This document shows, piece after piece, positions 2,756-47,843 of a DNA stretch of 64,000 nt. Each line of letters begins with the position of its first letter. Positions within the stretch are counted from its first letter, which is position 1. This DNA comes from Nitrososphaerota archaeon (GTDB lineage: Archaea; Thermoproteota; Nitrososphaeria; Nitrososphaerales; JACPRH01), in the NCBI GenBank assembly GCA_023379805.1, contig JAMCPI010000017.1, positions 19,977 through 83,976 on the forward strand, given 5' to 3'. Made by a program: the position numbers and the translations under genes. The notes under the pieces are model-generated. The model was not told the origin of the DNA and did no database searches. It saw nothing but the letters and a program-made list of their open reading frames with translations.

Positions 2756-2844
2756 CTAGCTATTAGTTTGAGTGGATTTGGCTGATGGCCAGTTTCTGGG
2801 TTCCCTGCGATAAATGAGTGTTGAGGGTTGCAGGTATTTAATTG

Positions 2845-2955
2845 GAGTTGGGCGTTCGATGCAGACGTTTGGCTCTTGCGCCTATGGGGTAATATGACCA
2901 GCTTGTCTCGGGCCGCCACAACTCTATCTTGTGGCACCCTAGCTACGAAGCGCGT
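2845..2955 (-). ncRNA. Copy A of the ~100-nt conserved intergenic element (candidate structured RNA)
   Basis: The reverse complement aligns with 19293-19410: CGCTTCGTAGCT(A)GGGTGC...GAGTTGTGGCGGCC...CTGGTCA...CCCCA. A TATA-like TTTTTATAAT (reverse complement of 2964-2974) lies about 20 nt upstream on the minus strand. The hairpin arm is less well paired than in the other copies. Confidence 0.35.
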
Positions 2956-3406: not shown

Positions 3407-3450
3407 TTTAATCTTCACTGGAGAAGCATACGCGGTGGTCTAGTTTTGCT

Positions 3451-11041: not shown

Positions 11042-11059
11042 CGATAATTCCTTCGAATC

Positions 11060-11431
11060 CTATCGAGTCTTTTTTACAGCGTGGGCGAATCCTTTTCTGC
11101 TCTCTTTCACCGTTTCTTCGATGTCTTCGCAGAGACCGGCTATTTCTTTAATGAACTCGTCCTCTTTCATAACTACGAATTTTCCCCGGGGTTCTTCAAA
11201 AAAGACTATTTTGTCCCCAGGCTTTATCTTGAGCTTCTTTCTAACCTCTTTCGGAATAGTCGCCTGGTACTTCTGCGTCACAGTTGACATATTACTCATT
11301 ACCTCTTTCAATCGGGTCTTTTCTTCAGCGGGCTCAGACTTCCTCAAAATTACTCTGTCGCCCTCAAGTTCGAAAACAACCCTTGAGCCCGGATAAATCC
11401 TAAGCGCCTCTCTAAACACTTTGGGAATCAC
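11060..11431 (-). CDS. AbrB/SpoVT-family antitoxin with two swapped-hairpin domains
   Basis: There are two repeats of the motif: VIPKVFREALRIYPGSRVVFELEGDRVILRK and ATIPKEVRKKLKIKPGDKIVFFEEPRGKFVVMK. GTG start. It lies directly upstream of the PIN fragment. Confidence 0.7.
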   Translation of the reverse strand: MIPKVFREALRIYPGSRVVFELEGDRVILRKSEPAEEKTRLKEVMSNMSTVTQKYQATIPKEVRKKLKIKPGDKIVFFEEPRGKFVVMKEDEFIKEIAGLCEDIEETVKESRKGFAHAVKKTR

Positions 11432-12067: not shown

Positions 12068-12100
12068 GTTGTATGGAGGCCGTCTTACCGTACTTTATAT
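12068..12100 (+). promoter_or_regulatory. Class I promoter box + TATA (paralog 1)
   Basis: GTTGTATGGAGGCCGTCTTACCGTACTTTATAT. 25 of 33 positions are invariant with 14478-14510 and 16954-16986. It ends 26 nt before ATG 12126. Confidence 0.6.
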
Positions 12101-12125
12101 CTTTTCAAAATACAGCGTCTATGAA

Positions 12126-14372
12126 ATGTTAGGTCATAAACTAACTCTATATATTGTACTAACCACTCTCTGCTTCAGCGCCTTTATTCCAGCGCTGGTA
12201 TACGCAGCACCACTAGGAATCACCGCTAAAGACTGGGAGCACACCAACGGCGGCTCATGGGCAGGCAACTACAGCCCACAAACCACCATCACCAAAGACA
12301 ACGTGAACAACCTCGAAGTGAAATGGATCTTTCCCGTCTCACAAAGGGCGCTTGGTCCGAAAGGCATCCAAGGTACAGGTCTCATCGAAGGAGCCAACAC
12401 TCCTCCGATTGTGAGAAACGGCAAGGTCTACGCCCAGACCAACTGGCTAAGACTCTACTCACTGGACGCAGCTTCAGGCAAACTGCTCTGGATGTACGAC
12501 TACTCCGCAAACGTCACCGCACTAACCACAAGGGATCCAGTCGTCATCGGCGGCAGCACCCATTCACACGGCTTCAGATACTGGGAGGCAGGCAACATGA
12601 TTCTGCAAGGCGGCCCACTCTGCGACTTCTACGGAGTCGACGCGGACACCGGCAAGCAGAAGTTCTACGTAGCAGATCTCTGCAACAACATTCCGGGAAG
12701 CATCTACAAGTACGTATCAATCATACCTGGCGGCGGACACGAAATCGCCACCTACGAGAAGGGTAAGCAGTTCATCATCTACTTCCCCGGCGGACGCGGC
12801 GGCGCAATTCTCGCAGGCAGAGCATTCGTCGCAGGAATCAACATGGACAACTACCAAACAGCGTGGCGGGTCTACCTGAACCCGCCTTACGACAAAGCAG
12901 AACCCGACTGGGCACTACAATACTGTGATGTAGGCTACTTCCCATACGGCGTATCCTGCAGTGACGTAGTCAAAATGTTTGGACAAGACGCCCTCAAGTA
13001 CGACTGGCAGAAGGAGCCGGGTAAGCCAATGAACGGCTTCAACGGCGTAAGCAGCGGCTGGGGTCAACCAGTAGTCGACGAAGACACAGGAACAGTCTAC
13101 ATCCCAAGTACAGGGAACCAAAGCCCCTACACAAACGTAACATTCAGGCCCGGACCGAACCTCTACGGAAGCACGATCTTAGCAATCGATCTGAACAAGG
13201 GCTCAATAAAATGGTGGCTACAACCACTTTCACACGATCCTTGGGACTATGACTGCAACTGGGGAGGCATCCTCGCAGACGTCCCAGGAACAGGCAAAGT
13301 CTTCGCCAAAGGCTGCAAAGAAGGCATCCTCTACGTAATGAACGCTGCAACCGGCAAACCGGTCTACTGGGTCGACATCATGAAAGACAACCCGCAACCA
13401 ATGGGAAAGAGAACCATAGAAGTACCTGACCCAAGCACCACCACACCTAAAGTCTTGTACAAGGACTCAACAGGAAAAGAATACAGCTACACCTTCGCCG
13501 AATGGATAAAGCTACCTTGGCCAGGATACCCAGACAACCCACAGATCCCTATGAACCCGATAATACTCAACGGCGCATTCCAAATCGACATGTCCTATGA
13601 CCCAGCCACCCAAACACTCTTCCACTACTACGCGTCAGGTGGACAAAGCATACTGAAGCAGAACCCGATCATCGAAGGAAAAGGCATCTGGAGCTCCAAA
13701 ACCGACAACCCACACAACACTACAATCGTAGCCCGAGACATAACAACAGGCAAAATCAAATGGGAGATACCCCCACTACCCTACAACGTCAGAGGACACC
13801 TACTCATAACAGGCGGAATGGTAGTCAGCCCATTGACAGACGGCTACATCCGATTCTACGACGAATCCACCGGCAAAACCCTACGTGAAATGAACCTCGG
13901 CTCCACACTCGTAACCGGAGTCACCACCGGACAAGACTCTAAAGGAGACCAGAAGATATTCGGCATCATCGGACAAACCACACAGATAGGCATAGTCGAA
14001 CCAGGCACCGTATTCGCACTCGGCCTATCCAGCAACAACGCAGGAGGCGGCGCAACCCCACAAACAACCACAGTCACCACAACCGCAACCACCACAACCA
14101 CAACAGTAAGCACCTCAGCTACAACAGTCACAACAACTGCACCGGCTAAAACCGTAACCACGACAAGCGCCACAACCGTCACCGCAACACAATCAGCTCA
14201 AACACAGACAAAGACTACAACAATCACCTCAAGCGCACCAGCACAAACCACCACCGTAACATCATCAATCACACAAAACACCGGACTACCATCGGAAGTC
14301 ACCTACGGAGCGGTCGGAGTAGCAGTAATAGCTCTGATTGCAGCTGCAGCACTGGCGATGCGGAAAAAGTAG
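12126..14372 (+). CDS. Secreted PQQ-dehydrogenase-like beta-propeller, Thr-rich stalk, C-terminal TM anchor (paralog 1, most divergent)
   Basis: The start is moved from 12069 to ATG 12126, because 12068-12100 is the promoter box shared with paralogs 2 and 3. The signal peptide ends ...FIPALVYAAP. Motifs present: NYSPQTTITKDNVNNLEVKWIFP, HGFRYWE, TGNQSPYTNVTFRPGPNLYGSTILAIDLNKGSIKWWLQPLSHDPWDYDCNW. The tail is GLPSEVTYGAVGVAVIALIAAAALAMRKK. Confidence 0.85.
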   Translation: MLGHKLTLYIVLTTLCFSAFIPALVYAAPLGITAKDWEHTNGGSWAGNYSPQTTITKDNVNNLEVKWIFPVSQRALGPKGIQGTGLIEGANTPPIVRNGKVYAQTNWLRLYSLDAASGKLLWMYDYSANVTALTTRDPVVIGGSTHSHGFRYWEAGNMILQGGPLCDFYGVDADTGKQKFYVADLCNNIPGSIYKYVSIIPGGGHEIATYEKGKQFIIYFPGGRGGAILAGRAFVAGINMDNYQTAWRVYLNPPYDKAEPDWALQYCDVGYFPYGVSCSDVVKMFGQDALKYDWQKEPGKPMNGFNGVSSGWGQPVVDEDTGTVYIPSTGNQSPYTNVTFRPGPNLYGSTILAIDLNKGSIKWWLQPLSHDPWDYDCNWGGILADVPGTGKVFAKGCKEGILYVMNAATGKPVYWVDIMKDNPQPMGKRTIEVPDPSTTTPKVLYKDSTGKEYSYTFAEWIKLPWPGYPDNPQIPMNPIILNGAFQIDMSYDPATQTLFHYYASGGQSILKQNPIIEGKGIWSSKTDNPHNTTIVARDITTGKIKWEIPPLPYNVRGHLLITGGMVVSPLTDGYIRFYDESTGKTLREMNLGSTLVTGVTTGQDSKGDQKIFGIIGQTTQIGIVEPGTVFALGLSSNNAGGGATPQTTTVTTTATTTTTTVSTSATTVTTTAPAKTVTTTSATTVTATQSAQTQTKTTTITSSAPAQTTTVTSSITQNTGLPSEVTYGAVGVAVIALIAAAALAMRKK

Positions 14373-14390
14373 GAGATACCAATCGCAGTA

Positions 14391-14427
14391 GACGATCCTG
14401 AACAAGGATCGTCCTCTCGCATTTTTT
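14391..14427 (+). terminator. Conserved hairpin + T-tract (paralog 1)
   Basis: GACGATCCT (14391-14399), loop gaaca, AGGATCGTC (14405-14413), then TTTTTT at 14422-14427. Confidence 0.6.
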
Positions 14428-14477
14428 ATCACTCCCAACTCAATAGCTGCTCAAGGCTTCTTTAGAGCAGGCAAATA

Positions 14478-14510
14478 GTCGTATGGAGACCATCTTACCC
14501 CACCTTATAA
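14478..14510 (+). promoter_or_regulatory. Class I promoter box + TATA (paralog 2)
   Basis: GTCGTATGGAGACCATCTTACCCCACCTTATAA. It contains ATGG-aga-CCAT dyad symmetry and ends 28 nt before ATG 14538. Confidence 0.6.
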
Positions 14511-14537
14511 CGAACTAAAAGAACCAAAAACCTGAAG

Positions 14538-16840
14538 ATGTTATCGAGCAAATATTGGATAACTAACTGTATATTACTTACCGTACTAACATTCAGCACA
14601 TTCGCACCTATACTAGCATACGCAGCACCCCTAGCAACTTCTGACAAGAACTGGCTGAACATGAACGGGAACACCTGGGCATGGAACTACAGCCCGGAGA
14701 CACAGATCAACAAGGATAACGTGAAGAACCTTGAAGTGAAATGGATATTCCCAATAACTAGCATAGCTCAAGCTGGCCCGAAAGGCTATGTATCACTTCA
14801 GCCTGGAGACGGTTCAAGCACACCGCCTATCGTCAGAAACGGCAAAGTCTACATCACGACCAATTACCAGATGATTATTGCACTAGACGGTAAAACAGGC
14901 AAGCAGCTGTGGAAAAACAGCTACGACATAAACCTCACTCAAGCAGTTCAGCGACTACCCTTAACCCCCGCAACCTTCGGCGGAGTACACAACCACGGCT
15001 TCAGATACTGGGAAACCGGAAACGCGCTCATCAACCGCGGCATAGCATGCGACTTCTACGGAGTTGACGCGGACACCGGCAAAACATCATTCTGGGTCCA
15101 AGACCTATGCAAAGACATCCCAGGCAACCTATACAAGTACAACACCGTCTACGCAGGCGCCAAATCCGGCAGCGTCGGAATATACGAGAAAGGTCACCAG
15201 TTCATCTACGTACTCTCAGGCGCAGTACACTCAAGCCTCTCACCCGCAGGCGATGGAAGACATGTCACAATGGGCATCGACACTACAACAAAGAACGTCA
15301 TATGGAGAGTCTTCAGCGCCCCACCCCAAGACGTTCCAACCAAGGACTGGGCACTCCAAGAATGCAGCATAGGATACTTCCAGACACACCCATGCAGCGA
15401 TGTAGCAGCCAAGAACCGAGCCGGGTTAGAATGGGACTGGGCATTACCCGACGCAGCACCAGTCAAGTGGGCTGGCGTAACCGCTAACTGGGGCCAGCTT
15501 GTCGTCGACGAAGACACCGGAATAGTCTACACTAATACAGGCAACCAGGGACCATACTCAAACATGTCAATGACACCTGGACCAAGACTCTACGGTTCAA
15601 CCATAATGGCCATCGACGTGAACGCAGGCAAACGCATATGGTGGCTACAACCCTTCCCACATGATCCCTATGATTATGACTGCAACTGGAGCGGAATACT
15701 AGCTGATGTTAAGGGCTAGGTAAAGTCTACATGAAGGGATGCAAGGAAGGCATTCTGTATGCAATGGACGCTAAGACAGGTAAGCCGGTGTGGACAGCGG
15801 ACGTAGTAAAGGAACAGGTAACATGGGGACAGATCCAAGCTGCCGCAGCCGAACCCCAGCCGAAAGGCATCCGGGCATATCAGCCAGATCCATATAGCTT
15901 CCACGATATGCGTGAGTGGAACTGGATCAGCTACCCAGCCGCAGCCCCAGGCCAAGCCGGCGAGCGCTGCAACCTTCCCTGCGGTCTATATCCGCACTGG
16001 TCAAACGGACTCTTCGGAACAGACCTCTCATACGATCCGGATACCAACACGCTATTCCAATACGCATCTGGACAACAGGTAGCCTTGCTTAAAGAATTCG
16101 GAATGAAGGATGGCGCAAGCCTCATGAGCACCAAAGGATACTCAATATCTAACTCAACCATAGTAGCCCGCGACGCAGCCACTGGCAACGTCAAGTGGAC
16201 ATGGTTCTACAAGTTCAGCACCCAGCGCAGCCACCTAGTTGTAACCAGTGACATGCTTCTTACAGGCTTCACAGACGGCTACATGCGCTTCTTCGACAAA
16301 AGCTCAGGCAAACTCCTCCGCGAAATGAACATCGGCACCCACATGGTGAACGGCTTCACCACAGGCCAAGACTCAGACGGCAAACAGAAACTATTCGGAG
16401 TTATAGGAGTAGGGGACGCAACCGCAGCCCGAGTATATCCAAGCCCAACAGCAGGAGGTGCAGTAATCGCACTAGGACTCTCAGAAACAGCCGGAGGCGG
16501 CGCAGCCCAAACCACCACAGTCACAACCACCTCAGCCACAACAATCACAACCGCAACCACCAGCACCATAACTACAACATCAGCCACAACAGTTACCAGC
16601 GCAACCACTAACACCGTAACCACAACAAGCGCCACAACCGTCACAGCAACACAATCAGCTCAAACACAAACTAAGACAACCACCGCAACGGTTACCTCCA
16701 ATGCGCCAGCTCAAACCACAACAGTAACCTCACAGGTCACTCAAACCACCGGACTACCCTCAGAAGTCACCTATGCAGCAGTCGGCATAGCTGTAATAGC
16801 TATCGCAGGCGCAGCATTCCTAGCAATGCGGAAGAAGTAG
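14538..16840 (+). pseudogene. PQQ-dehydrogenase-like paralog 2, interrupted by a 1-nt frameshift in a G-run
   Basis: ORFs 14538-15719 and 15731-16840 are the N- and C-halves of one paralog. At 15711-15722, aagGGGctaggt has three Gs. A fourth G would read K-G-L-G-K-V-Y-M-K-G-C-K-E-G, matching the family consensus. This could be a true pseudogene, a sequencing error or a slippage site. Confidence 0.6.
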
Positions 16841-16861
16841 ATAGAAACAACAGTAGAAGAA

Positions 16862-16898
16862 GACGATCCTTACAAAGGATCGTCACTTCAAATTTTTT
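16862..16898 (+). terminator. Conserved hairpin + T-tract (paralog 2)
   Basis: GACGATCCT (16862-16870) pairs with AGGATCGTC (16876-16884), followed by TTTTTT at 16893-16898. Confidence 0.6.
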
Positions 16899-16953
16899 CT
16901 CTGCCTAATAAAAGAGATTGTTCGATTTAAGTAGAATCATTTTAAATTATTTG

Positions 16954-16986
16954 GTCGTATGGATACCGTCTTACCCTACCTTATAA
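16954..16986 (+). promoter_or_regulatory. Class I promoter box + TATA (paralog 3)
   Basis: GTCGTATGGATACCGTCTTACCCTACCTTATAA. It ends 26 nt before ATG 17012. Confidence 0.6.
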
Positions 16987-17011
16987 CCCGCGAACCGAAG
17001 CACTGCTCGAA

Positions 17012-19225
17012 ATGTTATCAAGCAAATCTTGGATAACTAACTGTATAATACTTGTCTTATTGACGTTCAGCACATTCGCAACATCACTAGCATACGCAGC
17101 ACCCCTAGCTAACACCGAGAAGGACTGGCAGTACGTCGGCGGAAACTCTTGGGGTTGGCACTACGGCCCACAAACACAGATCAACAAGAACAACGTCGAC
17201 CAGCTCGAAGTAAAATGGCTCTTCCCGATAGGCGGCCAATCGTCGGCGCCCACAGGAATAAAAGCCATACCCGGAATCAGCGACGGAACAGGCACACCCC
17301 CAATAGTCAGAGACGGATCAGTATACGTATTGAACGATTGGGGAACCATGTACGCTGTAGATGCCGGGACGGGCAAACAAAAATGGTCACATGACTATGT
17401 CATCAACATGGACGAATTACGCAAGAAAATACCGGTGGCGCTCGGAGGACTCATGCATACCCATGGATTCAGATACTGGGAAGGTGGAGACGCACTACTA
17501 GCCTATGGTCTGGCGTGCGACTTCTACGGTGTTGACGCCAAGACCGGCAAGGAGAAGCTATGGGTCAAGGATATCTGTAAGGATGTCCCTGGAAACATCG
17601 GTCAATACAGACCTAGCCCATCCAACACCAATATCATCGGAACCTACGAGAAGGGACGCCAATTCATCATTGTCCTGCCAAGCAGGATTCACAGCAACGT
17701 CGCAGAAGTAGCTCCACAGGAATCTAGACACGTCACAATGGGCATAAGCATGGACGCGCCGTACAAAGTATTATGGCGAGTCTTCAGCTCACCACCTCAA
17801 GACGTTCCAACTAAGGACTGGGCTCTACAAGAGTGTAGCATCGGTTTCTTCCGAGAAATACCCTGCAGCGAAGTTGCAAAGGTGAACCAGAAAGGCCTTG
17901 AATGGGACTGGTCGCTTCCGGAACAAAAGCCAGGATATTTCGCCGGTGTCACAGCCAACTGGGGTCAACCCATAGTTGACGAAGACACAGGCATCATCTA
18001 CACCAACACAGGCAACCAAGGACCATACTCAAACGTATCACTAACACCAGGACCACGCCTCTACGGCAGTACCATCATGGCTATCGATATGAATGCGGGC
18101 AAACGTGTCTGGTGGCTACAGCCATGGCCGCATGACTTCTACGACTACGACTGCAACTGGAGCGGAATACTTGCAGAAAGCTCAACCCTCGGCAAAGTCT
18201 ACACATACGGCTGCAAGGAAGGAAGGTACTTCGTGATGGACGCAGCTAATGGTAAACCGAAGCTGGTGGTCGATGTCCGTGGCGACCAGTTAGCTAGAGG
18301 ACAGATATCAGCAGATCCATTCAAAATGGTCTACCAACCAGATCCTAAGAGCTTCTCCGATATGAGAGAATTCAACTGGATCAGCTGGCCTGCTACAAAG
18401 CCGGGTGAGCAGGGTAAGTTCTGTACCTTGCCTTGCACAGTATATCCGAACTGGACCAACGGGATATTCCAGTCGGACAGAGCGTACGACCCTGAGACAC
18501 AGACATACATACTCTACGAAGGAGCCCTCTGGGCACGAGTATTAGCGGAGCACTCCTACTTCCCAGGTGAGCGTAACTACAACGGCGGAAACTTGTTCAC
18601 AACCCAGCGTTCTCAACCCGTCAACACCACGCTAGTTGCCAGAGACCTCGCAACCGGCAAGGTGAAGTGGACATGGTTCTACCAATACAGCTCGCAGCGT
18701 GCCGCTCCGATTGTATCAGGTGGCATGGTCATCACAGGCTGGCCAGACGGTCTCATGAGGTTCTTCGACAAGGACTCAGGCAAACTCATTCGCCAACTGA
18801 CAATCGGCTCACCGATAATAGTTCAACCTACAATCGGCAAAGACTCATCAGGCAATTCAAAGATATTCCTAGTCGCAGGTGCATCAGGCCCCATGGGAGC
18901 TGGAGATGCTAGATACGGAATGCAAGGGCTAACCAGAGTTCCAGGAACACTCATCGCCATAGGCCTCACAGAAAAGGCGGCGACAGAAATCAAAACAAGC
19001 ACAGTCACAACTACTCAGAGCACAACTCTCACAACAACCTCAGCAACCACTCAGACACAGACTACAACAGTCACCTCAAACGCACCAGCTCAGACACAGA
19101 CTACAACAGTAACCTCACAGGTTACTCAAACAACAGGTCTGCCTTCTGAAGTCACTTACGCGGCAGTCGGTATAGCTGTAATAGCCATCATCGCAGCAGC
19201 AGTACTCGTGATACGGAAGAAGTAG
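17012..19225 (+). CDS. Secreted PQQ-dehydrogenase-like beta-propeller with stalk and C-terminal anchor (paralog 3)
   Basis: 737 aa. The signal peptide ends ...FSTFATSLAYAAP. Motifs present: HGFRYWEGGDA, TGNQGPYSNVSLTPGPRLYGSTIMAIDMNAGKRVWWLQPWPHDFYDYDCNW. A Thr-rich linker is followed by the tail GLPSEVTYAAVGIAVIAIIAAAVLVIRKK. Confidence 0.9.
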   Translation: MLSSKSWITNCIILVLLTFSTFATSLAYAAPLANTEKDWQYVGGNSWGWHYGPQTQINKNNVDQLEVKWLFPIGGQSSAPTGIKAIPGISDGTGTPPIVRDGSVYVLNDWGTMYAVDAGTGKQKWSHDYVINMDELRKKIPVALGGLMHTHGFRYWEGGDALLAYGLACDFYGVDAKTGKEKLWVKDICKDVPGNIGQYRPSPSNTNIIGTYEKGRQFIIVLPSRIHSNVAEVAPQESRHVTMGISMDAPYKVLWRVFSSPPQDVPTKDWALQECSIGFFREIPCSEVAKVNQKGLEWDWSLPEQKPGYFAGVTANWGQPIVDEDTGIIYTNTGNQGPYSNVSLTPGPRLYGSTIMAIDMNAGKRVWWLQPWPHDFYDYDCNWSGILAESSTLGKVYTYGCKEGRYFVMDAANGKPKLVVDVRGDQLARGQISADPFKMVYQPDPKSFSDMREFNWISWPATKPGEQGKFCTLPCTVYPNWTNGIFQSDRAYDPETQTYILYEGALWARVLAEHSYFPGERNYNGGNLFTTQRSQPVNTTLVARDLATGKVKWTWFYQYSSQRAAPIVSGGMVITGWPDGLMRFFDKDSGKLIRQLTIGSPIIVQPTIGKDSSGNSKIFLVAGASGPMGAGDARYGMQGLTRVPGTLIAIGLTEKAATEIKTSTVTTTQSTTLTTTSATTQTQTTTVTSNAPAQTQTTTVTSQVTQTTGLPSEVTYAAVGIAVIAIIAAAVLVIRKK

Positions 19226-19236
19226 AAAAAGCAGAA

Positions 19237-19274
19237 GACGATCCTCACAAGATCGTCCTCCCCTTTCTTTTTTT
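19237..19274 (+). terminator. Conserved hairpin + T-tract (paralog 3)
   Basis: GACGATC (19237-19243) pairs with GATCGTC (19251-19257), followed by TTTCTTTTTTT at 19264-19274. Confidence 0.6.
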
Positions 19275-19292
19275 AATCGTAGTAAAAACTTA

Positions 19293-19410
19293 CGCTTCGT
19301 AGCTGGGTGCTGCGGAGGTGGAGTTGTGGCGGCCGCTTCAGACTGGTCAAGTATTTTCCCACGGGTGCAGGAACCGCATGCCTGCGTCCAACACCCACTT
19401 TTCGTTTTTC
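19293..19410 (+). ncRNA. Copy B of the ~100-nt conserved intergenic element (candidate structured RNA)
   Basis: The core is GAGTTGTGGCGGCCGCTTCAGACTGGTCAAGTATTTTCCCACGG. The hairpin is GGGTGCAGG (19363-19371) / CCTGCGTCC (19381-19389). TTTTTTTAAT lies about 25 nt upstream and a T-rich run TTTTCGTTTTT lies downstream. Confidence 0.4.
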
Positions 19411-19569
19411 AGCAGCAAAAGCAAGGCGAATCTTCTAATGCGAATGTAGCGGATCCAGCGAGCCCTGTCTATCGTGCACCCGCCGATATGTAGGTAAGAC
19501 ACATTAGCTGACATCTTCGGTAATCCGAGCTCCTTAAATCAATGTTATTCCTCATTTTAATTCGTACAT

Positions 19570-20067
19570 ATGGATGCTTCAGACATCGATATTGTAAGGA
19601 TGTTTCGAGCGGAGCTTGCTCAGCTACAAGTCAAGCTTCTCGATATGGGTGACGCTGTTGAGCAGGAACGACTAAGAGACGCTATTAATACTCTCGAAGA
19701 CGCTAGCGTAATACTGAACTCGCACCTTAAATTCGAAGAGGCGTTGTTTCCCAAACTCAAACCCTACTTGGGCAGCTACATGGATCAAGCCACAGAGGAG
19801 CATGACGAAGCTAAGAAAGCAGTCAAACGTCTAAAAGACATCATATCCGATGAAAACCAGACACAAGAAACCAGAGTAGAAGCCGTATGGTGGAACCTAA
19901 GATGGCTCATCGACCACACAACAAACTGCGACTGCCTCGCACTAATGATGGAAAAACTCAGCGGAGACGAGTTACACCAACTCAGACAAAAATTCAAAGA
20001 AGCCAAGCAGGCCAACCCACCACTACTAAAGAAATCAGCCCGCGCAAAACAATCAAACCTAACCTAG
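19570..20067 (+). CDS. Hemerythrin-like (HHE cation-binding) domain protein
   Basis: 165 aa. HLKFEEALFPKL, TEEHDEAKKAVKRL and DHTTNC...LSGDELHQL resemble the H..EE..lfP / EH / H...E repeats of hemerythrin-like domains. The last motif is degenerate. Confidence 0.55.
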   Translation: MDASDIDIVRMFRAELAQLQVKLLDMGDAVEQERLRDAINTLEDASVILNSHLKFEEALFPKLKPYLGSYMDQATEEHDEAKKAVKRLKDIISDENQTQETRVEAVWWNLRWLIDHTTNCDCLALMMEKLSGDELHQLRQKFKEAKQANPPLLKKSARAKQSNLT

Positions 20068-20284
20068 ACCAGTCTTTTTCTAATCTAGAACACTTTGTCC
20101 TATGGATTAAGAATTAAAGAATACTGTCTACAGTTATTTTCACTATTCGTGACGGTCACCGAGGTCAGTTGCAATGTGGGAGCATTTTGATGTGCTGCGA
20201 TTCTCTTATTATATTTAATTCATATTTAAGAATACTTCTGAATTCGCGTCAAAACTTGCTAAAAATAGATTCACTTTTCTTCAC

Positions 20285-20299
20285 AAACTTTATATAAAT
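20285..20299 (+). promoter_or_regulatory. Class II promoter TATA region (paralog 4)
   Basis: AAACTTTATATAAAT lies 44 nt upstream of ATG 20329. The spacing and near-identical sequence match 22786-22800. The proximal GAAAATAACTTATGAAGAAT is also shared. Confidence 0.55.
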
Positions 20300-20328
20300 A
20301 GGATACAGATATTTTCTGAAAATAACTT

Positions 20329-22461
20329 ATGAAGAATAGTAGTAAGCATCAACCGACACTACTGTCTATGCTCGTAATTCTGGCATTCAGCACATTCATG
20401 CCAGCACTAGCCTTCGCAGCACCTACGGGAGACAACGGCAAAGACTGGATGAACACCAACGGCAACAGCTGGGCATGGAATTATAGTCCACAAACCCAGA
20501 TCAACAAGAACAACGTGCAGAACCTTGAAGTGAAATGGGTGTTCCCACTCGCATCCAAGGCTCTGGCGCCAGCAGGAATCCAAGCGGCCGGGATCGGTGA
20601 AGGAACAACAACGCCCCCTATCGTCAGAAACGGAATAGTCTACGTCATTACCAGCTTCATGAAGGCATACGCCATCGACGCAAAGACCGGCAAGCAGATC
20701 TGGACCAATGATTACAGCATCGACATAGAAGCAGCGAAGCAGAGGCTACCGTTAATGATCGCCGGATCCGTTCACAAGCACGGCTTCCAGTACTGGGAAA
20801 GCGGCGACGCGATAATCAACCACGGCTTAGCCTGTGACTTCTACGGCCTTGACGCCAAGACTGGCAAAGAGAAATTCCACGTCAACGATCTCTGCAAAGA
20901 CGTACCTGGATCGCTCTACAAGTATCTGGCACGTCGGCCCGGCGCAGAGCCTAGCATAGGAATCTATGAGAAAGGCCACCAATTCATCTACGTCCTAGCT
21001 GGTTACATGCACAGCACACTTTCAGCCCCAGATGCACGCCACGTCACAATGGGCATTGACATGGACAGCAAACAGATTAAATGGAGAGTCTTCAGTTCAC
21101 CACCACAAGATCAACTCAGCAAAGACTGGGCACTACAGGAGTGCGACATCGGATACTTCAGAACCACCTCCTGCAAAGATGTAGCAGCAGTAAACCAGAA
21201 AGGCTTAGAGTGGGACTTCGCGCTACCCAACGAAAAACCAAGCATGTGGGGTGGAGTGACAGCCAACTGGGGACAGGCAGTAATTGATGAAGACACAGGA
21301 ATAATGTATACTCAGACTGGCAATCAAGGACCGTATTCAAACATGACACTAGTACCAGGACCACGCCTCTACGGAAGCACCATAATGGCCATCGACCTGA
21401 ACCAAGGCAAACGTGTCTGGTGGCTACAGCCATTCCCACACGATCCATATGACTACGACTGCAACTGGAGTGGAATGTTGATCAACAGCAAAGCTCTGGG
21501 CAAAGTCTACGTCAAGGGCTGCAAGGAAGGCATCTTCTACGTGATAGATGCAAAGACAGGTCAACCAAAGTACAGCGTAGATGTGATTAAAGACCAAGTT
21601 GCAAGAGGACAAGTAAGCGCAGCTGCAGCTAAATCTCCGCCTGACGGCATCCGAGCATACATGCCTGATCCAAAGAGCTACCATGACATGAGGGAGTGGA
21701 ACTGGATCAGCTATCCAGCCACTAAGCCAGGTGAGAAAGGAGAGCACTTCACGCTACCTGCATCGATATATCCACACTTCCAGAACGGCATTTTCCAGAC
21801 AGACATGTCCTACGATCCTGAAACAGAAACAATGATCTACTACGAAGGCGCACTCCAAGTAGACGTATTATCTGAACGCCCCTACATACAAGGCGCAGAT
21901 CTCTTCGTAGTCAAGGGATATCCGAAAGCCAATACTACCATAGTAGCGAGGGACATAACCACCGGCAAGGTGAAGTGGACTTGGTTCTATCAACTCAGCA
22001 ACCAGAGAGCAGCCATGGTCGTATCTGGCGGCACAGTCTTCTCCGGGTTTACTGACGGCACGATGAAGTTCTTCAACAAAGACACAGGTGCAGATCTTGC
22101 TAAGATAAACGTCGGAGCACCAGTTCTCGTCGAACCAACAATCGGTACAGACTCAGATGGCAACTCAAAGATATTCGCAGTAGTCGGATCTACATCGATT
22201 TCAGTAGGACCACAGTACGGAGACCCCGGGCCACAAATACCCGGAACACTCATCGCCCTCGGACTGAGAGAGACACCAGTAGCTGAAGTCAAGGTCACAA
22301 CAGTCACAACCAGCACGACAATCACCACTACTCAAGCAGTTACAACCACCCAGTCGATCACAGGAACAAGCGGATTACCAGCAGAAATAACCTACGCGGC
22401 AGTTGCAGTAGCAATAATCGTCAGCATCGCCGCAGCAGTATTAGCAATGCAGAAGAAATAA
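20329..22461 (+). CDS. Secreted PQQ-dehydrogenase-like beta-propeller with stalk and C-terminal anchor (paralog 4)
   Basis: 710 aa. The signal peptide ends ...FSTFMPALAFAAP. Motifs present: HGFQYWESGDA, PHDPYDYDCNWSG. The stalk is short. The tail is GLPAEITYAAVAVAIIVSIAAAVLAMQKK. Confidence 0.9.
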   Translation: MKNSSKHQPTLLSMLVILAFSTFMPALAFAAPTGDNGKDWMNTNGNSWAWNYSPQTQINKNNVQNLEVKWVFPLASKALAPAGIQAAGIGEGTTTPPIVRNGIVYVITSFMKAYAIDAKTGKQIWTNDYSIDIEAAKQRLPLMIAGSVHKHGFQYWESGDAIINHGLACDFYGLDAKTGKEKFHVNDLCKDVPGSLYKYLARRPGAEPSIGIYEKGHQFIYVLAGYMHSTLSAPDARHVTMGIDMDSKQIKWRVFSSPPQDQLSKDWALQECDIGYFRTTSCKDVAAVNQKGLEWDFALPNEKPSMWGGVTANWGQAVIDEDTGIMYTQTGNQGPYSNMTLVPGPRLYGSTIMAIDLNQGKRVWWLQPFPHDPYDYDCNWSGMLINSKALGKVYVKGCKEGIFYVIDAKTGQPKYSVDVIKDQVARGQVSAAAAKSPPDGIRAYMPDPKSYHDMREWNWISYPATKPGEKGEHFTLPASIYPHFQNGIFQTDMSYDPETETMIYYEGALQVDVLSERPYIQGADLFVVKGYPKANTTIVARDITTGKVKWTWFYQLSNQRAAMVVSGGTVFSGFTDGTMKFFNKDTGADLAKINVGAPVLVEPTIGTDSDGNSKIFAVVGSTSISVGPQYGDPGPQIPGTLIALGLRETPVAEVKVTTVTTSTTITTTQAVTTTQSITGTSGLPAEITYAAVAVAIIVSIAAAVLAMQKK

Positions 22462-22474
22462 TAAGTAAAAAGGT

Positions 22475-22511
22475 AGACGATCCTTTAAGGATCGTCTTAC
22501 TCCTATTTTTT
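22475..22511 (+). terminator. Conserved hairpin + T-tract (paralog 4)
   Basis: AGACGATCC...GGATCGTCT (22475-22497), followed by TTTTTT at 22506-22511. Confidence 0.6.
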
Positions 22512-22785
22512 AGGAGATAAAATAGGTTCACAATTGTCCACCTTCTCGAATCAAATTTATCGAATTAACCATTAAAATGTTTCACGAACTCTATATTTCG
22601 ATTCGTCATTATCCTTGTTTAAGAATGGCTGATGCTCGCTACATTATTAGTTCATCCTTGCGCCGCCAGATAATTGTCTTGCCCTTTTCAAAAGAATGTC
22701 AATTCCTTCCATTGGCGACATCAATTCCCAACATATCTAAAATTCTTAATATGGATCGCCGAAAATAAGGTATATACTTCTTCGT

Positions 22786-22800
22786 AAAGTTTATATAAAA
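22786..22800 (+). promoter_or_regulatory. Class II promoter TATA region (paralog 5)
   Basis: AAAGTTTATATAAAA lies 44 nt upstream of ATG 22830. The proximal GAGAATAACTTATGAAGAAT is shared with paralog 4. Confidence 0.55.
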
Positions 22801-22829
22801 ATGCCAATTATAACTACCGAGAATAACTT

Positions 22830-25013
22830 ATGAAGAATGATAGTTATTATCGAGCAACACTAATGTCAATACTCGTAATCCTCGCATTCAGCACTTTCAC
22901 ACCAACACTCGCATTCGCAGCACCCCTCGCCAATAACGACAAAGACTGGCAGTACGTTAACGGTAACAGCTGGGCATGGAACTACAGTCCACAGACACAG
23001 ATCAACAAGGACAACGTCGGCAACCTTGAAGTCAAGTGGATATTCCCTCTTGGAAGCAAAGCGTTAGCGCCGGCAGGCATGCAGGCAATACAAGGGTTTG
23101 CTGAGGGCACAACCACCCCACCGGTTGTTAGAGATGGAACAGTCTTCGTCAACAGCAACTGGGGTAGAATGTACGCCGTTGACGCCGCAACAGGCAAACA
23201 GAAATGGACCTACGACTATGTGCTCAACTTCAGTGATGTACGCAAGAAAATACCCGTGGAAATGGGCGGCATCATACACGACCACGGCTTCAGATACTGG
23301 GAGTCCGGAGATGCACTACTCTCCTACGGTCTAGCCTGTGACTTCTACGGCGTAGATGCAAAGACTGGGAAACAAAAGTTCTGGGTCAAAGACCTCTGCC
23401 TAGATGTACCTGGAAACCTTGGCATATACAGACCTAGTCTAGCCAACAGCGCAGTCATAGGCACCTACGAAAAGGGCCGACAGTTCATCGTCGTGTTCCC
23501 AAGCAGAATCCACAGCAACGTAGCTCAGGTAGCACCGCGCGACTCGAGACACGTCACAATGGGCATCAGCATGGACGCACCATACAAAGTAATGTGGCGA
23601 GTCTACAGCTCTCCACCGCAGGATCAACCCGTCAAAGACTGGGCGATCGCAGAATGTAGCAGCGGTTACTTCCGAGACATACCCTGTACCGAGGCACTAG
23701 CGGCTAACCGCGCAGGACTCGAATGGGACTTCGCACTCCCCAATCAGCCAATCGGCTGGTACGGCGGAGTCACAGCAAACTGGGGTCAACCTGTAGTTGA
23801 CGAAGATACAGGCCTGCTCTACACCCAGACAGGCAACCAAGGACCATACTCCAACATGACACTAGCACCAGGACCAAGACTCTTCGGCAGCACCATAATG
23901 TCCATAGACATGAACGCAGGCAAACGCATCTGGTGGCTACAACCATTCCCCCATGACCCGTATGACTATGACTGCAACTGGAGCGGATTGCTCACAGAAA
24001 ACCCGACGCTTGGCAAGGTCTATGTGTACGGCTGCAAGGAAGGAAGATACTTCGCGATTGATGCAGCTACAGGTAAACCGAAGCTAACTGTCGATGTCCG
24101 TAAAGACCAGTTCGCAAGAGGACAGATCTCTAGCGACCCGTATAAACTCCTCTATGAGCCTGATCCAAGAAGCTACTACGACATGAGGGAATGGAACTGG
24201 ATAAGCTACCCCGCAAAGAAAGTAGGCGAGCAAGGCAAGTTCTGCACCCTACCCTGCACAGTGTACCCGGACTTCTATAATGGCATCTTCGCAACAGACA
24301 GAGCGATAGACCCGCAGACACAAACATACTACCTCCACGAAGACGCGTTGACAGCAAGAATTGACAAGGAACACTCTTACTTCCCAGGAGATGCAAACTA
24401 TGCTGCAGGCAACCTGTTCACCACCTCCAGACCTCTGCCTACCAATAGCACAATCGTCGCCAGAGACCTAGCCACTGGTAAAGTAAAGTGGGTATGGTTC
24501 TTCCCCTACAGTCACCAACGCGCAGCCCCAGTGGTCACCGGAGGCATGGTGTTCAGTGGCTTCACAGACGGATACCTACGCTTCCTAGACAAGGACTCAG
24601 GCAAAATGCTAAACGAGATCGTCGTCGGATCGCCTATCGTAGTCCAACCAACAATCGGCAAAGACTCTCAAGGCAACTCAAAGATATTCGCCATCGTCGG
24701 CGCAACCCGCCTCGCCGGGGCAGCTAACTTCGGACTAGGTGGACAAAGTGATGTACCCGGAACACTAATAGCTCTCGGACTATCCCAGAAAGTCGCAACC
24801 GGAACGACAACAACTGTTACTACCACTTCCGCCACAACTGTTACTAGCACATCAGCTACAACAGTAACCACAGCTGCACCAGCTCAAACTGTGACTTCAT
24901 CGGTCACACAAACCGCGACCACAGGTCTACCAGCAGAAGTCACCTACGGGGCAGTCGGAGTAGCAGTAATAGCTCTGATTGCAGCAGCAGTACTAGTAAT
25001 GCGTAAGAAGTAA
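22830..25013 (+). CDS. Secreted PQQ-dehydrogenase-like beta-propeller with stalk and C-terminal anchor (paralog 5)
   Basis: 727 aa. The body is closest to paralog 3 (shared blocks include IGTYEKGRQFI, SRHVTMGISMDAPYKV, GCKEGRYF). PHDPYDYDCNWSG is present. The tail is GLPAEVTYGAVGVAVIALIAAAVLVMRKK. Confidence 0.9.
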   Translation: MKNDSYYRATLMSILVILAFSTFTPTLAFAAPLANNDKDWQYVNGNSWAWNYSPQTQINKDNVGNLEVKWIFPLGSKALAPAGMQAIQGFAEGTTTPPVVRDGTVFVNSNWGRMYAVDAATGKQKWTYDYVLNFSDVRKKIPVEMGGIIHDHGFRYWESGDALLSYGLACDFYGVDAKTGKQKFWVKDLCLDVPGNLGIYRPSLANSAVIGTYEKGRQFIVVFPSRIHSNVAQVAPRDSRHVTMGISMDAPYKVMWRVYSSPPQDQPVKDWAIAECSSGYFRDIPCTEALAANRAGLEWDFALPNQPIGWYGGVTANWGQPVVDEDTGLLYTQTGNQGPYSNMTLAPGPRLFGSTIMSIDMNAGKRIWWLQPFPHDPYDYDCNWSGLLTENPTLGKVYVYGCKEGRYFAIDAATGKPKLTVDVRKDQFARGQISSDPYKLLYEPDPRSYYDMREWNWISYPAKKVGEQGKFCTLPCTVYPDFYNGIFATDRAIDPQTQTYYLHEDALTARIDKEHSYFPGDANYAAGNLFTTSRPLPTNSTIVARDLATGKVKWVWFFPYSHQRAAPVVTGGMVFSGFTDGYLRFLDKDSGKMLNEIVVGSPIVVQPTIGKDSQGNSKIFAIVGATRLAGAANFGLGGQSDVPGTLIALGLSQKVATGTTTTVTTTSATTVTSTSATTVTTAAPAQTVTSSVTQTATTGLPAEVTYGAVGVAVIALIAAAVLVMRKK

Positions 25014-25032
25014 CCGTAGTAGCAGAAGCATC

Positions 25033-25071
25033 AGGACAATCCCAATGGATTGTCCTTTCCCCTATTTTATT
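25033..25071 (+). terminator. Conserved hairpin + T-tract (paralog 5, compensated stem variant)
   Basis: AGGACAATCC (25033-25042) pairs with GGATTGTCCT (25047-25056). The G-to-A change in the 5' arm is matched by a C-to-T change in the 3' arm relative to the GACGATCC/GGATCGTC consensus. TTTTATT follows. Confidence 0.55.
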
Positions 25072-25084
25072 AGATCATTACGAT

Positions 25085-25185
25085 CACTCCTCGAACGCAG
25101 CAATACCTAGCGGTGGGGTTGTGGCGGCTCACGACAGGCTGGTCACATTTTCCCCACGGGTGCAGGAGCCACATGTCTGCACCCA
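25085..25185 (+). ncRNA. Copy D of the ~100-nt conserved intergenic element (candidate structured RNA)
   Basis: The core is GGGGTTGTGGCGGCTCACGACAGGCTGGTCACATTTTCCCCACGG. The hairpin is GGGTGCAGG (25158-25166) / TCTGCACCC (25176-25184), with 8 Watson-Crick pairs plus a terminal G-U. Confidence 0.4.
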
Positions 25186-25337
25186 AAATTCTTCTATCCA
25201 CTTTTGTGGATCGATCTATCTGATTGAGCATTACTCATGCTGGACGGGTGTCTGTAAAATGGAATTTCTTTCTCCTCCGATTTCATAATTTTGACACCTC
25301 GGTATTACCATTTTCTAGACATCTGCATATTTTTTAC

Positions 25338-25426
25338 TTATTTATGTTAAATTAGGATTATACAAGTTTGTAAATTGGAATTCGAAATATATACGGTACC
25401 AATTCATTTTGCAGAATACTTATATT
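25338..25426 (+). promoter_or_regulatory. Class III promoter (distal box + TATA) of paralog 6
   Basis: The distal box TTATTTATGTTAAATTAGGATTATAC (25338-25363) and the TATA element ACTTATATT (25418-25426) have identical 80-nt and 38-nt spacings to the paralog 7 upstream region (27831/27911/27949). Confidence 0.55.
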
Positions 25427-25455
25427 GCGTATACATCTTCTTGATTTCGAAATTT

Positions 25456-27615
25456 ATGATGTCTATAAGATCACATAAATCTATGATATTGACTGTTCTA
25501 GCGATACTCGCATTCAGCACATTCCTACCCGCACTCGCATTCGCAGCACCAACAGGCGATAACGGCAAAGACTGGATGAACACGAATGGAAACTCCTGGG
25601 CACAGAACTACAGCCCACAAACACAGATCAACAAGAACAACATCAACAACCTAGAGGTGAAATGGCTCTTCCCGCTCGCATCCAAGGGCTTAGCTCCAAA
25701 AGGAATCCAAGCGGCCGGCATCGGCGAAGGAACCACTACACCACCAATTGTAAGAGACGGAAGAGTTTACGTGATCACCAGCTTCATGAAGACCTACGCA
25801 ATCGATGCAAAAACAGGTAAACAGGTCTGGACACACGACTACGACATTGACATCGAAGCAGCAAAGCAGAGATTACCTCTAATGATAGCTGGATCAGTTC
25901 ACAAACACGGCTTCCAGTACTGGGAGGGCGGAGACGCCATCATTAACCACGGACTAGCCTGCGACTTCTATGCACTTGACGCCAAAACCGGCAAGGAGAA
26001 GCTCCGCGTCGAAGACCTATGCAAAGACGTGCCTGGATCACTCTACAAGTATCTAGCGCGTCGACCCGGCGCAGAGCCCAGTATCGGGATCTACGAGAAG
26101 GGTCACCAATTCATCTATGTCTTAGCAGGCTACATGCATAGCAGCCTTACCGCACCAGACGCACGGCACGTCACCATGGGAATCGACATGGACAGCAAGA
26201 ACATCAAATGGAGAGTCTTCAGTGCTCCACCGCAAGATGTTCCAACTAGAGACTGGGCCCTACAGGAATGTGACATAGGCTACTTCCGCGACATTCCATG
26301 CAAAGACGTAGCGGCCAAGAACCTGAAAGGGCTCGAATGGGACTGGGCTCAACCAGGTGAAAAACCAAGCATGTGGGGTGGAGTAACTGCTAACTGGGGC
26401 CAAGCAATAGTTGACGAAGACACAGGCATCATGTACACCAACACAGGTAACCAAGGACCATACTCAAACATGTCAATGACACCCGGACCTCGTCTCTACG
26501 GAAGCACAATCATGGCAATCGACCTAAACAAAGGTAAGAGAGTTTGGTGGCTACAACCCTTCCCGCACGATCCATACGACTATGACTGCAACTGGAGCGG
26601 AATACTAGCTGAAGTCAAGGGTGTTGGCAAAGTCTACGCCAAAGGCTGCAAGGAGGGTATCCTCTACGTGGTTAACGCAGCTACGGGTAAGCCATTGTAC
26701 AAGGTGGATGTGAGAGATGATCAACTAGCAAGAAGGCAGATATCTACGCTAAGCAACAAGGCGTACGCACCTGATCCGATGAGCTACCACGATCTTAGGG
26801 AGTGGAACTGGATTAGCTACCCAGCCACAAAGCCAGGTGAGAAAGGGGAACACTGCACTCTACCATGCTCAATCTATCCAGCCTTCATGAACGGCATCTT
26901 CCAAACCGACATGTCCTATGACCCTGAAACCCAAACATTGATACTCTACGAAGGCGCACTGCAAGTAAACATCCTATCTGAACACCCATATGCCCAAGGC
27001 GCAGAGCTCTTCAGAACCAGCATGTATCCAACTGCGAACACCACAATCGTAGCTAGAGATCTAGCCACTGGCAAAGTGAAGTGGACTTGGTTCTACCAAT
27101 TGAGCAACCAGAGAGCGGCCATGGTAGTATCAGGAGGTACAGTATTCACCGGATTCACTGATGGACAAATGCGCTTCCTAGACAAGGACACAGGCAAGGA
27201 ACTAGGCAAGCTAAGCCTCGGATCACCAGTCCTCGTTCAACCAACTATAGGTCAAGATACAGATGGTAACTCAAAGATATTCGCGGTTGTCGGATCCACA
27301 TCACTCGCCTCAGGACCGCAGTACGGCAATCCAGGACCAACGATCCCAGGAACACTAGTCGCCATCGGCCTGAGTGACAAGGCAGCCCAAATCGTCACCA
27401 GTACATCTACAACTACCGCAACCACTACTGCAATCTCTAGCACCACAGCAACTACAACAGTCACATCAAGTGCACCGGCACAAACTATAACCACATCAAT
27501 CACCCAAACTCAAACCGAGACCTCAGGTCTACCATCAGAAGTAACCTATGCAGCAGTCGGCATAGCTGTAATAGCTATCGCAGGCGCAGCATTCTTAGCA
27601 ATGCGGAAGAAGTAG
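25456..27615 (+). CDS. Secreted PQQ-dehydrogenase-like beta-propeller with stalk and C-terminal anchor (paralog 6)
   Basis: The start is moved from 25375 to ATG 25456. It lies 38 nt after ACTTATATT, as in paralog 7, within the shared TTTCGAAAtTTATG context. The signal peptide ends ...FSTFLPALAFAAP. PHDPYDYDCNWSG is present. The tail is GLPSEVTYAAVGIAVIAIAGAAFLAMRKK. Confidence 0.88.
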   Translation: MMSIRSHKSMILTVLAILAFSTFLPALAFAAPTGDNGKDWMNTNGNSWAQNYSPQTQINKNNINNLEVKWLFPLASKGLAPKGIQAAGIGEGTTTPPIVRDGRVYVITSFMKTYAIDAKTGKQVWTHDYDIDIEAAKQRLPLMIAGSVHKHGFQYWEGGDAIINHGLACDFYALDAKTGKEKLRVEDLCKDVPGSLYKYLARRPGAEPSIGIYEKGHQFIYVLAGYMHSSLTAPDARHVTMGIDMDSKNIKWRVFSAPPQDVPTRDWALQECDIGYFRDIPCKDVAAKNLKGLEWDWAQPGEKPSMWGGVTANWGQAIVDEDTGIMYTNTGNQGPYSNMSMTPGPRLYGSTIMAIDLNKGKRVWWLQPFPHDPYDYDCNWSGILAEVKGVGKVYAKGCKEGILYVVNAATGKPLYKVDVRDDQLARRQISTLSNKAYAPDPMSYHDLREWNWISYPATKPGEKGEHCTLPCSIYPAFMNGIFQTDMSYDPETQTLILYEGALQVNILSEHPYAQGAELFRTSMYPTANTTIVARDLATGKVKWTWFYQLSNQRAAMVVSGGTVFTGFTDGQMRFLDKDTGKELGKLSLGSPVLVQPTIGQDTDGNSKIFAVVGSTSLASGPQYGNPGPTIPGTLVAIGLSDKAAQIVTSTSTTTATTTAISSTTATTTVTSSAPAQTITTSITQTQTETSGLPSEVTYAAVGIAVIAIAGAAFLAMRKK

Positions 27616-27637
27616 TGACCGAAGCAACGGTAACAAT

Positions 27638-27672
27638 GGGCGATCCTTCCGGATCGTCCCCCCTCTTTTATT
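27638..27672 (+). terminator. Conserved hairpin + weak T-tract (paralog 6)
   Basis: GGGCGATCC (27638-27646), loop ttcc, GGATCGTCC (27651-27659) with one G-U pair, followed by TTTTATT. Confidence 0.5.
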
Positions 27673-27682
27673 GGGATATTAC

Positions 27683-27775
27683 ACTTGCTCCTCAAACGCG
27701 GCGATACCTCGCATAGCGGGGGATTGTGTCGGCTTAGATGAATATCCGTGTGACCTTTTCCGCCCTTCCCCGCTT
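27683..27775 (+). repeat. Copy E (degenerate) of the conserved intergenic element
   Basis: CTTGCTCCTCAAACGCGGCGATACCTCGCATAGCGGGGGATTGTGTCGGCT aligns with 25085-25128 of copy D. The 3' hairpin half has eroded. Confidence 0.35.
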
Positions 27776-27830
27776 CCCAAGTTTTGTTATTCTGCCTGTA
27801 TTATCTTCTAAAAGCGTTCTTTTTCTCCGT

Positions 27831-27919
27831 TTATTTATGCTAAATCGGGATTATACTGATCAATAAATTGTCTTCATAATAAGTACGATAATAACCACGT
27901 TTGTAGAAAGACTTATATT
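27831..27919 (+). promoter_or_regulatory. Class III promoter (distal box + TATA) of paralog 7
   Basis: TTATTTATGCTAAATCGGGATTATAC (27831-27856) and ACTTATATT (27911-27919). The spacing is identical to paralog 6. Confidence 0.55.
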
Positions 27920-27948
27920 AATTATGATGAATGTTTGTTTCGAAAATT

Positions 27949-47367: not shown

Positions 47368-47385
47368 AAAAACGAGTAGAATACA

Positions 47386-47562: not shown

Positions 47563-47678
47563 TTTCGCGGAACTTAGGGGTGCTGCGAAGGTGTGGGGGT
47601 GTGGCGGCCCGCTTCAGGCTGGTTAATATTTTCCCCACGGACGTAGGAGCCACATGCTTGCGTCTATCAGCGTGAATT
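47563..47678 (+). ncRNA. Copy C of the ~100-nt conserved intergenic element (candidate structured RNA)
   Basis: The core is GGGGTGCTGCGAAGGTGTGGGGGTGTGGCGGCCCGCTTCAGGCTGGTTAATATTTTCCCCACGG. The hairpin is GGACGTAGG (47649-47657) / CTTGCGTCT (47667-47675), fully paired through compensatory changes. Confidence 0.4.
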
Positions 47679-47843
47679 ATGTCAAGTAGGCGTGAAGTAA
47701 TGTGATCGCGTTGCTTGTGCAGGGTCAGCTTATCTCTACAGCAAAAAGAGAGATGATGCTTCTCTAGCTTGGCACGAATTAGTTGTCGTAAAAACCTATG
47801 ATTAATATTATTAACCCATTTTTCGGAGGCCACCTATACATCT

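Follow-up and report, generated by a model that had tools for sequence, protein, structure and literature searches.

The closest described counterparts of the element reported here are the trans-acting small RNAs (sRNAs) of archaea and bacteria, including those whose genes are sited at the 3' ends of protein genes: like them, it is 100–150 nt long, lies in intergenic DNA after a terminator, and has a TATA-like box upstream, a T-run downstream, and a hairpin in its 5' part. The U-rich single strand between its hairpins also recalls Sm/Hfq-binding RNAs. Unlike base-pairing sRNAs, however, the element is conserved far more strongly and more deeply, and no seed-target relation was found for it. 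With housekeeping RNP RNAs and the cores of ribozymes and aptamers it shares an invariant helix containing G-U pairs and a bulge, an invariant hairpin loop, covarying stems, and a variable apical loop, but it differs from them in having no Rfam match, in the several copies and decaying paralogs of some genomes, and in an apparently patchy occurrence. By eye, the arrangement resembles that of HDV-like ribozymes as well, with a helix (P1) that encloses a hairpin, a second hairpin next to it, and an extra complementarity (UGUGGC/GCCACA); in the element, however, this extra complement is part of the last hairpin's loop rather than being 3' of that hairpin, the linker to the 3' strand of P1 is long (7–8 nt), and no HDV-type model in Rfam is matched.

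Thaumarchaeota include the ammonia-oxidizing archaea that dominate nitrification in the oceans and in many soils, and to our knowledge almost nothing is known of their non-coding RNAs (ncRNAs) beyond rRNA, tRNA, SRP RNA, and RNase P RNA. An RNA of ~100 nt with ribozyme- or RNP-like conservation, which marine and terrestrial lineages share and Rfam lacks, is a concrete and testable candidate. The element described below is repeated, deeply conserved, and absent from Rfam, has a covarying structure specific to one strand, and is found in heterogeneous gene contexts. We suggest, with a probability of roughly 0.6, that it represents an uncatalogued family of structured small ncRNAs of ~105–150 nt in Thaumarchaeota (class Nitrososphaeria), which would be independently transcribed, RNP-associated, and trans-acting.

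For the window (i.e., the whole 64,000-nt stretch of Nitrososphaerota DNA analyzed here), a first-pass annotation had listed five copies of a conserved intergenic element of ~100 nt, and sequence reading and alignment placed them at about the same coordinates. Copy B (19295..19409, + strand), which matches our covariance model at 81.9 bits, illustrates the layout. Its minimum-energy fold gives the 5' hairpin P0 (19295-19303/19309-19317), the helix P1 (19318-19323/19358-19362) around P2 (19327-19334/19341-19349) and a U-rich linker (19350-19357), and the hairpin P3 (19363-19371/19381-19389), which is the 9-bp hairpin already recognized in the first pass and carries the variant loop AACCGCAUG (19372-19380). 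A C-rich tail (19390-19398) and the previously noticed T-run, located at 19399-19409, follow on the same strand. Upstream lies a T/A-rich box TTTCTTTTTTTAAT (19264..19277, + strand), a candidate TATA box whose promoter role is suggested by its sequence, and 5' of this box is the terminator-like hairpin of PQQ paralog 3 (19233-19261). Copy D (25090..25206, + strand, 101.8 bits) has a different leader, referred to below as type 2, and is the best-conserved copy in the window, its core (25113-25184, + strand, with the loop AGCCACAUG at 25165-25173) being 90% identical to that of L088 from another MAG. It is preceded by a PQQ terminator hairpin (25033-25056) and a TATA-like box CTATTTTATTAG (25062-25073, + strand), and followed by a T-run at about 25202-25205 (+ strand).

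Copy C (47563..47687, + strand, 91.5 bits) has a type-1 leader with P0 at 47564-47570/47583-47589 (+ strand), is supported by its fold, and lies 3' of PQQ paralog 8 and 157 nt 5' of a topoisomerase gene identified by Pfam; it has no clear T-run. Copy A (2835..2950, - strand, 72.1 bits), also of type 1, is the most diverged full copy, with the loop AGCCAAACG and, as seen in the alignment, mismatches in P0, P1, and P3; a TATA-like box TTTTTTATAAT is found at 2964-2974, and the gene upstream (3006-3320) matches Pfam HTH_5 (ArsR family). Copy E (27678..27785, + strand), aligned with D, has retained a D-type (type-2) leader and, of the core, the initial ~14 nt (GGGGGATTGTGTCGGCT); the rest is lost or garbled, with garbled traces of the linker and tail, and P3 is absent. 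It has no covariance-model match at E<=10. Degenerate, as it had been called, is correct, and "decayed remnant" is the better term. All five copies lie 3' of a gene on the same strand, as had been described: B, D, E, and C after PQQ paralogs, and A after the ArsR-type gene.

The core pattern TGTGGCGGN{6,9}CARRCTGGTYA matched exactly A, B, C, and D in the window and had no match in 100 shuffles. The covariance model, built from 18 copies, found the same four at 72–102 bits (E-values of 1e-17 to 1e-25), and nothing in the rest of the window scored >9 bits. Core identity among the window copies is 65–79%, which equals or exceeds that of the coding regions of the adjoining PQQ paralogs (65–72% at the nucleotide level), but the 110 nt 3' of the cores are only 46–50% identical, which is the random level. 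As the cores are kept while their flanks are randomized, selection acts on the element itself. It does so on a non-coding sequence, since the differences in loop length between copies are not multiples of three; a reading of the element as a small ORF was rejected because these indels break the frame. In line with the earlier view that no credible ORF covers copy C, the minus-strand ORF at 47330-47833 has no Pfam match.

The core fold consists of P1 (GUGGGG/CCCCAC), which encloses P2, followed by the hairpin P3 (GGGUGCAGG/CCUGCACCC). P2 (UGGCGGCY/RGCUGGUCA) contains two G-U pairs as well as one bulged G; the length and the sequence of its apical loop both vary. The linker between P2 and the 3' strand of P1 is U-rich, (A/G)UAUUUU, near-invariant, and 7–8 nt long, and the 9-nt loop of P3, AGCCACAUG, is near-invariant as well. 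In an alignment of 22 copies fitted to the covariance model, the three helices were 93.4% paired, and 13 of the 23 pairs had changed on both sides (mean of 5.1 in shuffled alignments; the observed number was reached in none of 500 shuffles). When partners were slid by 1–3 columns, pairing fell to 31–50%. An independent MAFFT alignment, with fewer sequences, gave the same picture. Covariation analysis, which the first-pass annotation had put forward as a check, thus gave a clear signal once the 22 copies, including those from other genomes, were aligned. Most of it comes from P3, in which eight of nine pairs covary (e.g., GGGCAAAAG/CUUUUGCUC in L242 vs. GGACGCGGG/CCCGCGUCC in L243); in P1, three of six do, including an A-U pair in L205 vs. 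G-U in L014 and L119. P2 gives no covariation support because it is almost invariant; its two G-U pairs (alignment columns 21-42 and 23-39) are present in 22 of 22 copies. On the complement these pairs would be A-C mismatches, and therefore only the reported strand can adopt the fold. Folding energies are modestly better than those of shuffled sequences at most (z of 0 to -2), and folding energy alone is weak evidence of structure.

Outside the core, the 5' parts differ between subfamilies. The terrestrial type-1 copies (A, B, C, L193, L095, L109, and L078) have the extra 5' hairpin P0, which is unrelated to P3 in sequence and covaries among them (e.g., CUUCGUAGC/GCUGCGGAG vs. CUUUACAGC/GCUGUGAAG). 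The type-2 copies (D, E, L070, L088, and L119) have a different leader, and L205 and L249 represent a third type. At the 3' end, a C-rich tail and a T-run close many of the copies. An alternative in which the 5' G-run pairs with this C-rich tail was tried and discarded: for the change in the G-run of L205, the compensating change is in the internal strand, whereas the tail has none, for which reason P1 was kept as drawn.

Searches for more copies, which had been recommended in the first pass, found the element well beyond this genome, including in marine lineages. Outside this genome, its 80-nt core is present in no fewer than 10 Thaumarchaeota/Nitrososphaerota assemblies or metagenome contigs at 67–91% core identity, with intergenic flanks that are randomized. 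These comprise five contigs of the groundwater Thaumarchaeota MAG JACPRH01 (L047, L070, L078, L088, and L119), three contigs of the Nitrososphaerota MAG XS84Bin3 (L095, L109, and L111), marine-type MAGs (L014 and L077, both of the Nitrososphaerales, and L242), and the metagenome contigs L122, L123, L127, L159, L193, L197, L205, and L207. Contigs fetched through the neighboring proteins supplied L242, the metagenome contig L243, and, in L249, a decayed copy. Marine-type and terrestrial copies are 67–80% identical in the core and share ~55 near-invariant positions. No copy was found within 10 kb in about five loci of three to four other genomes that contain the MptE, DHS, or PQQ genes (L244-L247, L250, and L251), and the pattern scan of viral contigs had no matches; the distribution among the sampled lineages appears patchy.

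The pattern used to scan genome contigs was loose, and among the at least 120 loci listed, about 110 were chance matches in bacteria and 10 were from Thaumarchaeota. A metagenome scan with GGCTGGTCA..YCAC..AGCCACATG gave about 10 true copies among the at least 120 loci listed, with seven distinct sequences. The latter pattern also matches a strongly conserved stretch of coding sequence in a bacterial membrane-protein family (most of L124-L241), which is unrelated to the element and calls for caution in pattern searches.

The element was further compared with established RNA families and element classes. None of the 4227 models of Rfam 15 matched the window or four loci at the gathering threshold, in line with the first-pass proposal of a candidate novel RNA family, and at E<=10 copies B, D, and the marine L207 copy had only chance-level matches to unrelated families. 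No mention of this RNA turned up in the literature, whether searched by topic or by literal sequence. In kind, the family would be a structured archaeal small RNA. The reported lack of tRNA, C/D, and H/ACA features also held: ARAGORN predicted no tRNA or tmRNA genes in the window, the C box RUGAUGA occurs in none of 21 copies (CUGA being present only in the L047-type leader), and an ACA box is not conserved, the triplet being mostly ACG after P1 and AAC, AGC, ACC, or others after P3. Neither an H/ACA pocket nor a K-turn was seen, as the 5' side of the internal loop has 3 nt and the variable loop has no conserved GA motifs.

The gene neighborhoods of the element are diverse. Pfam assigns the genes 3' of the window copies to hemerythrin, PQQ, and topoisomerase, and when all loci are considered, the downstream genes encode hemerythrin, PQQ, topoisomerase, an unknown protein, deoxyhypusine synthase (DHS), TnpB, or alcohol dehydrogenase. 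The order MptE-like (-), RNA (+), DHS, and H+-pyrophosphatase recurs in L122/L077, L242, and L243. The MptE|RNA|DHS arrangement is found in four lineages, with a TnpB gene between the RNA and DHS in L047. This gene (L047 1327-2511), which encodes a Cas12f1-like TNB domain, was inserted between the RNA and DHS and is absent from L243, L242, and L122. At ~25–50 nt 3' of the RNA, L047 (1205-1235) and L243 (3368-3400) share a second short conserved block, ACAGAGCGGTT..GCAG.AAAGGTTACAT, which may represent a promoter or some other small element. L242 (about 9815-9970) and L243 (about 3440-3610), of marine-type or related lineages, have a small ORF between the RNA and DHS, in which a C2H2-zinc-finger-like motif (C..C...H....H) can be read by eye. 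In a marine clade (L207 1694-3833), the RNA starts 20 nt 3' of the stop codon of the second P-II gene, which is the last in a cluster of amt (ammonium transporter), P-II, and P-II genes, and faces a gene for RtcA (RNA 3'-phosphate cyclase); the marine-clade RNA could conceivably be linked to nitrogen regulation or to the repair of RNA. A block of ~110 nt, from AAUGCUUUCAAG to the T-run plus GAAUC, is all that the two marine contexts have in common, and this delimits the gene.

TATA-like boxes upstream of copies A and B had been noted in the first pass at 20–25 nt from the conserved block; the boxes are present, but their distance from the core block is ~40–55 nt. Relative to P0, the T/A-rich boxes of A and B lie 13–17 nt upstream, and comparable boxes are found 13–20 nt upstream of P0 in A, L193, L095, and L109, distances that, from the sequence, are compatible with archaeal TATA boxes. 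The TATA-like boxes coincide with the T-runs of the upstream terminators. Downstream, 11 of 21 copies have a run of at least four T no more than 45 nt 3' of P3. From such signals we infer the promoters and the RNA ends of the element. Genes in the window have TATA boxes 30–40 nt before the ATG, very short leaders, and no Shine-Dalgarno sequence, and for this reason the idea that the C-rich tail occludes ribosome-binding sites was rejected. Complements of the P3 loop are not enriched in the window (8 matches vs. 14 expected).

These contexts bear on whether the element is a gene of its own or part of a neighboring transcript. In the first pass, independent sRNA genes and 3'-UTR modules had been left side by side, and the loci from other genomes favor independent genes. 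A cis-acting 3'-UTR module of the upstream mRNA (PQQ dehydrogenase, ArsR, or P-II), serving as a stabilizer, as a processing or termination signal, or as the source of a 3'-UTR-derived sRNA, would agree with the same-strand position of the five window copies and of L070, L088, L119, L205, and L249 after a gene, mostly PQQ, and with L207, where the short distance from the P-II stop codon leaves no space for a separate terminator. However, the upstream gene is divergent in L047, L077/L122, L242, and L243, and therefore no upstream mRNA exists there of which the element could be a 3' UTR; in the window, a terminator hairpin and T-run stand between the PQQ stop codon and the element, and about half of the PQQ paralogs have no element at all. 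We consider a 3'-UTR module unlikely as a general account, and an origin by 3'-UTR co-transcription and processing is possible for the PQQ- and P-II-linked copies. The opposite assignment, by which the element would regulate the downstream gene in cis as its 5' leader or riboswitch, has a very slim chance of being right: window copies do end 156–190 nt before the next same-strand ORF, but the downstream genes are unrelated and of no consistent class, they are convergent in four loci (L014, L123, L207, and L095), where the element therefore is not a 5' leader, and T-runs follow many copies. An independent sRNA gene, by comparison, agrees with a structure confined to one strand, as indicated by covariation and the invariant G-U pairs, and with the existence of copies that have no same-strand gene upstream and of others that have none downstream.

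Independent RNA genes also have to be weighed against readings in which the element is mobile, catalytic, or not an RNA. Multiple copies, some of them decaying, in varied contexts, one copy in L047 that is 160 nt upstream of the TnpB gene, and a TTAC-containing motif (TTACGCTT) upstream of several terrestrial copies are what a mobile-element relic, either a MITE or the end of an IS200/IS605-type element, might leave behind. Yet the terminal fragments of a MITE that the first-pass annotation had said would speak against an RNA were not found: apart from the internal hairpins, the copies have no inverted repeats in common, and no target-site duplication is present at the block boundaries in two marine contexts. 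Similar end hairpins of the IS200/IS605 kind are lacking, TnpB occurs at one locus only, as an insertion into the MptE|RNA|DHS locus that related lineages do not have, no transposase gene is present in the window, and viral contigs have no matches. Moreover, compensatory changes keep the helices over deep divergence, orthologous pairs across genomes outscore pairs within a genome, and the 5' ends differ between subfamilies, unlike an end recognized by a transposase; a mobile relic is accordingly quite improbable. A self-cleaving ribozyme or another catalytic or ligand-binding RNA, with an active site built from the invariant junctions and loop and perhaps with a pseudoknot, would account for the invariant internal loops and hairpin loop, the covarying stems, the variable apical loop, the multiple copies in some genomes, and the complementarity of the P3 loop (GCCACA) to 6 nt of the 5' core (UGUGGC). 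This pseudoknot, however, was not adopted, as it has no covariation support and is broken by a U-to-C change in L205 and L243, and no ribozyme or riboswitch in Rfam is matched even at E<=10, so that we regard catalysis or ligand binding as improbable. Least probable is a protein-binding site at the DNA level (operator, origin box, or recombination site); P2 and the P3 loop are as invariant in sequence as binding sites tend to be, but the element has many G-U pairs, two of them invariant, its compensatory changes preserve pairing on one strand only, and 100 nt with three to four helices would be atypical of such a site.

If the element is an independent small RNA, its own promoter, its ends, its binding of protein, and its action in trans are features that we infer from sequence comparison. 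Each gene would be transcribed from a TATA-type promoter of its own just after the terminator of the upstream gene, and transcription would stop at the T-run. The P2 helix, with its G-U pairs and bulged G, and the U-rich linker may form a protein-binding platform, for which an Sm-like or other RNA-binding protein would be a guess, and additional contacts, whether tertiary or in trans, may involve the P3 loop and the tail. In this view, the RNA would be a trans-acting part of a ribonucleoprotein and would not act on the neighboring genes. A bolder version, which we hold only tentatively and think unlikely, is that it is a Thaumarchaeota-specific molecule, either the RNA subunit of an unrecognized RNP or a ribozyme or aptamer of a new class, with P2, the linker, and the P3 loop as the binding or active site. 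If so, a core part of how archaea that are among the most abundant on Earth function would have been missed.

The family also explains the repeated sequence among the tandem PQQ-dehydrogenase paralogs. The association with these paralogs, emphasized in the first pass, is real in the window and extends to the same-strand PQQ genes that precede the copies in L070, L088, L119, L205, and L249, but it reflects a lineage-specific amplification and is not the defining context of the family. Cross-genome pairs (D-L088, 90%; C-L095, 88%) are closer than any pair within the window (65–79%), and therefore the paralogs predate the lineage split and were kept, with no recent burst. Decay is seen in E, L249, and partly in A (mismatches and an altered loop). 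The MptE-like/DHS locus would be the best candidate for the ancestral site. In terrestrial lineages, the RNA gene and a PQQ-dehydrogenase gene may then have been co-duplicated long ago and differentially retained; such an ancient co-duplication would be the simplest account of the sequences.

The PQQ array itself (12069-30060 and 45244-47367) consists of about eight beta-propeller paralogs with 57–69% amino-acid identity among those compared. They carry a C-terminal membrane anchor. Downstream of several of them come a conserved terminator-like hairpin, GACGATCC..GGATCGTC, and a run rich in C and T. Just 5' of the array (10038-11431) is a gene pair for a PIN-domain protein and a MazE-like antitoxin, according to the annotation of the equivalent stretch in L248 (JAMCWH010000017.1 of GCA_023481325.1). 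One paralog is split in the window into two ORFs in different frames (14538-15719 and 15731-16840) but is intact (767 aa) in L248, which points to a frameshift or a sequence error. The window at about 29122-29586 appears to bridge two contigs of GCA_023481325.1, of which contig 17 ends at ~29122 and contig 11 starts at ~29586, both inside the PQQ paralog at 27931-30060. Repeats among the paralogs probably break short-read assemblies, and the repeated element probably contributes to the breaks there.
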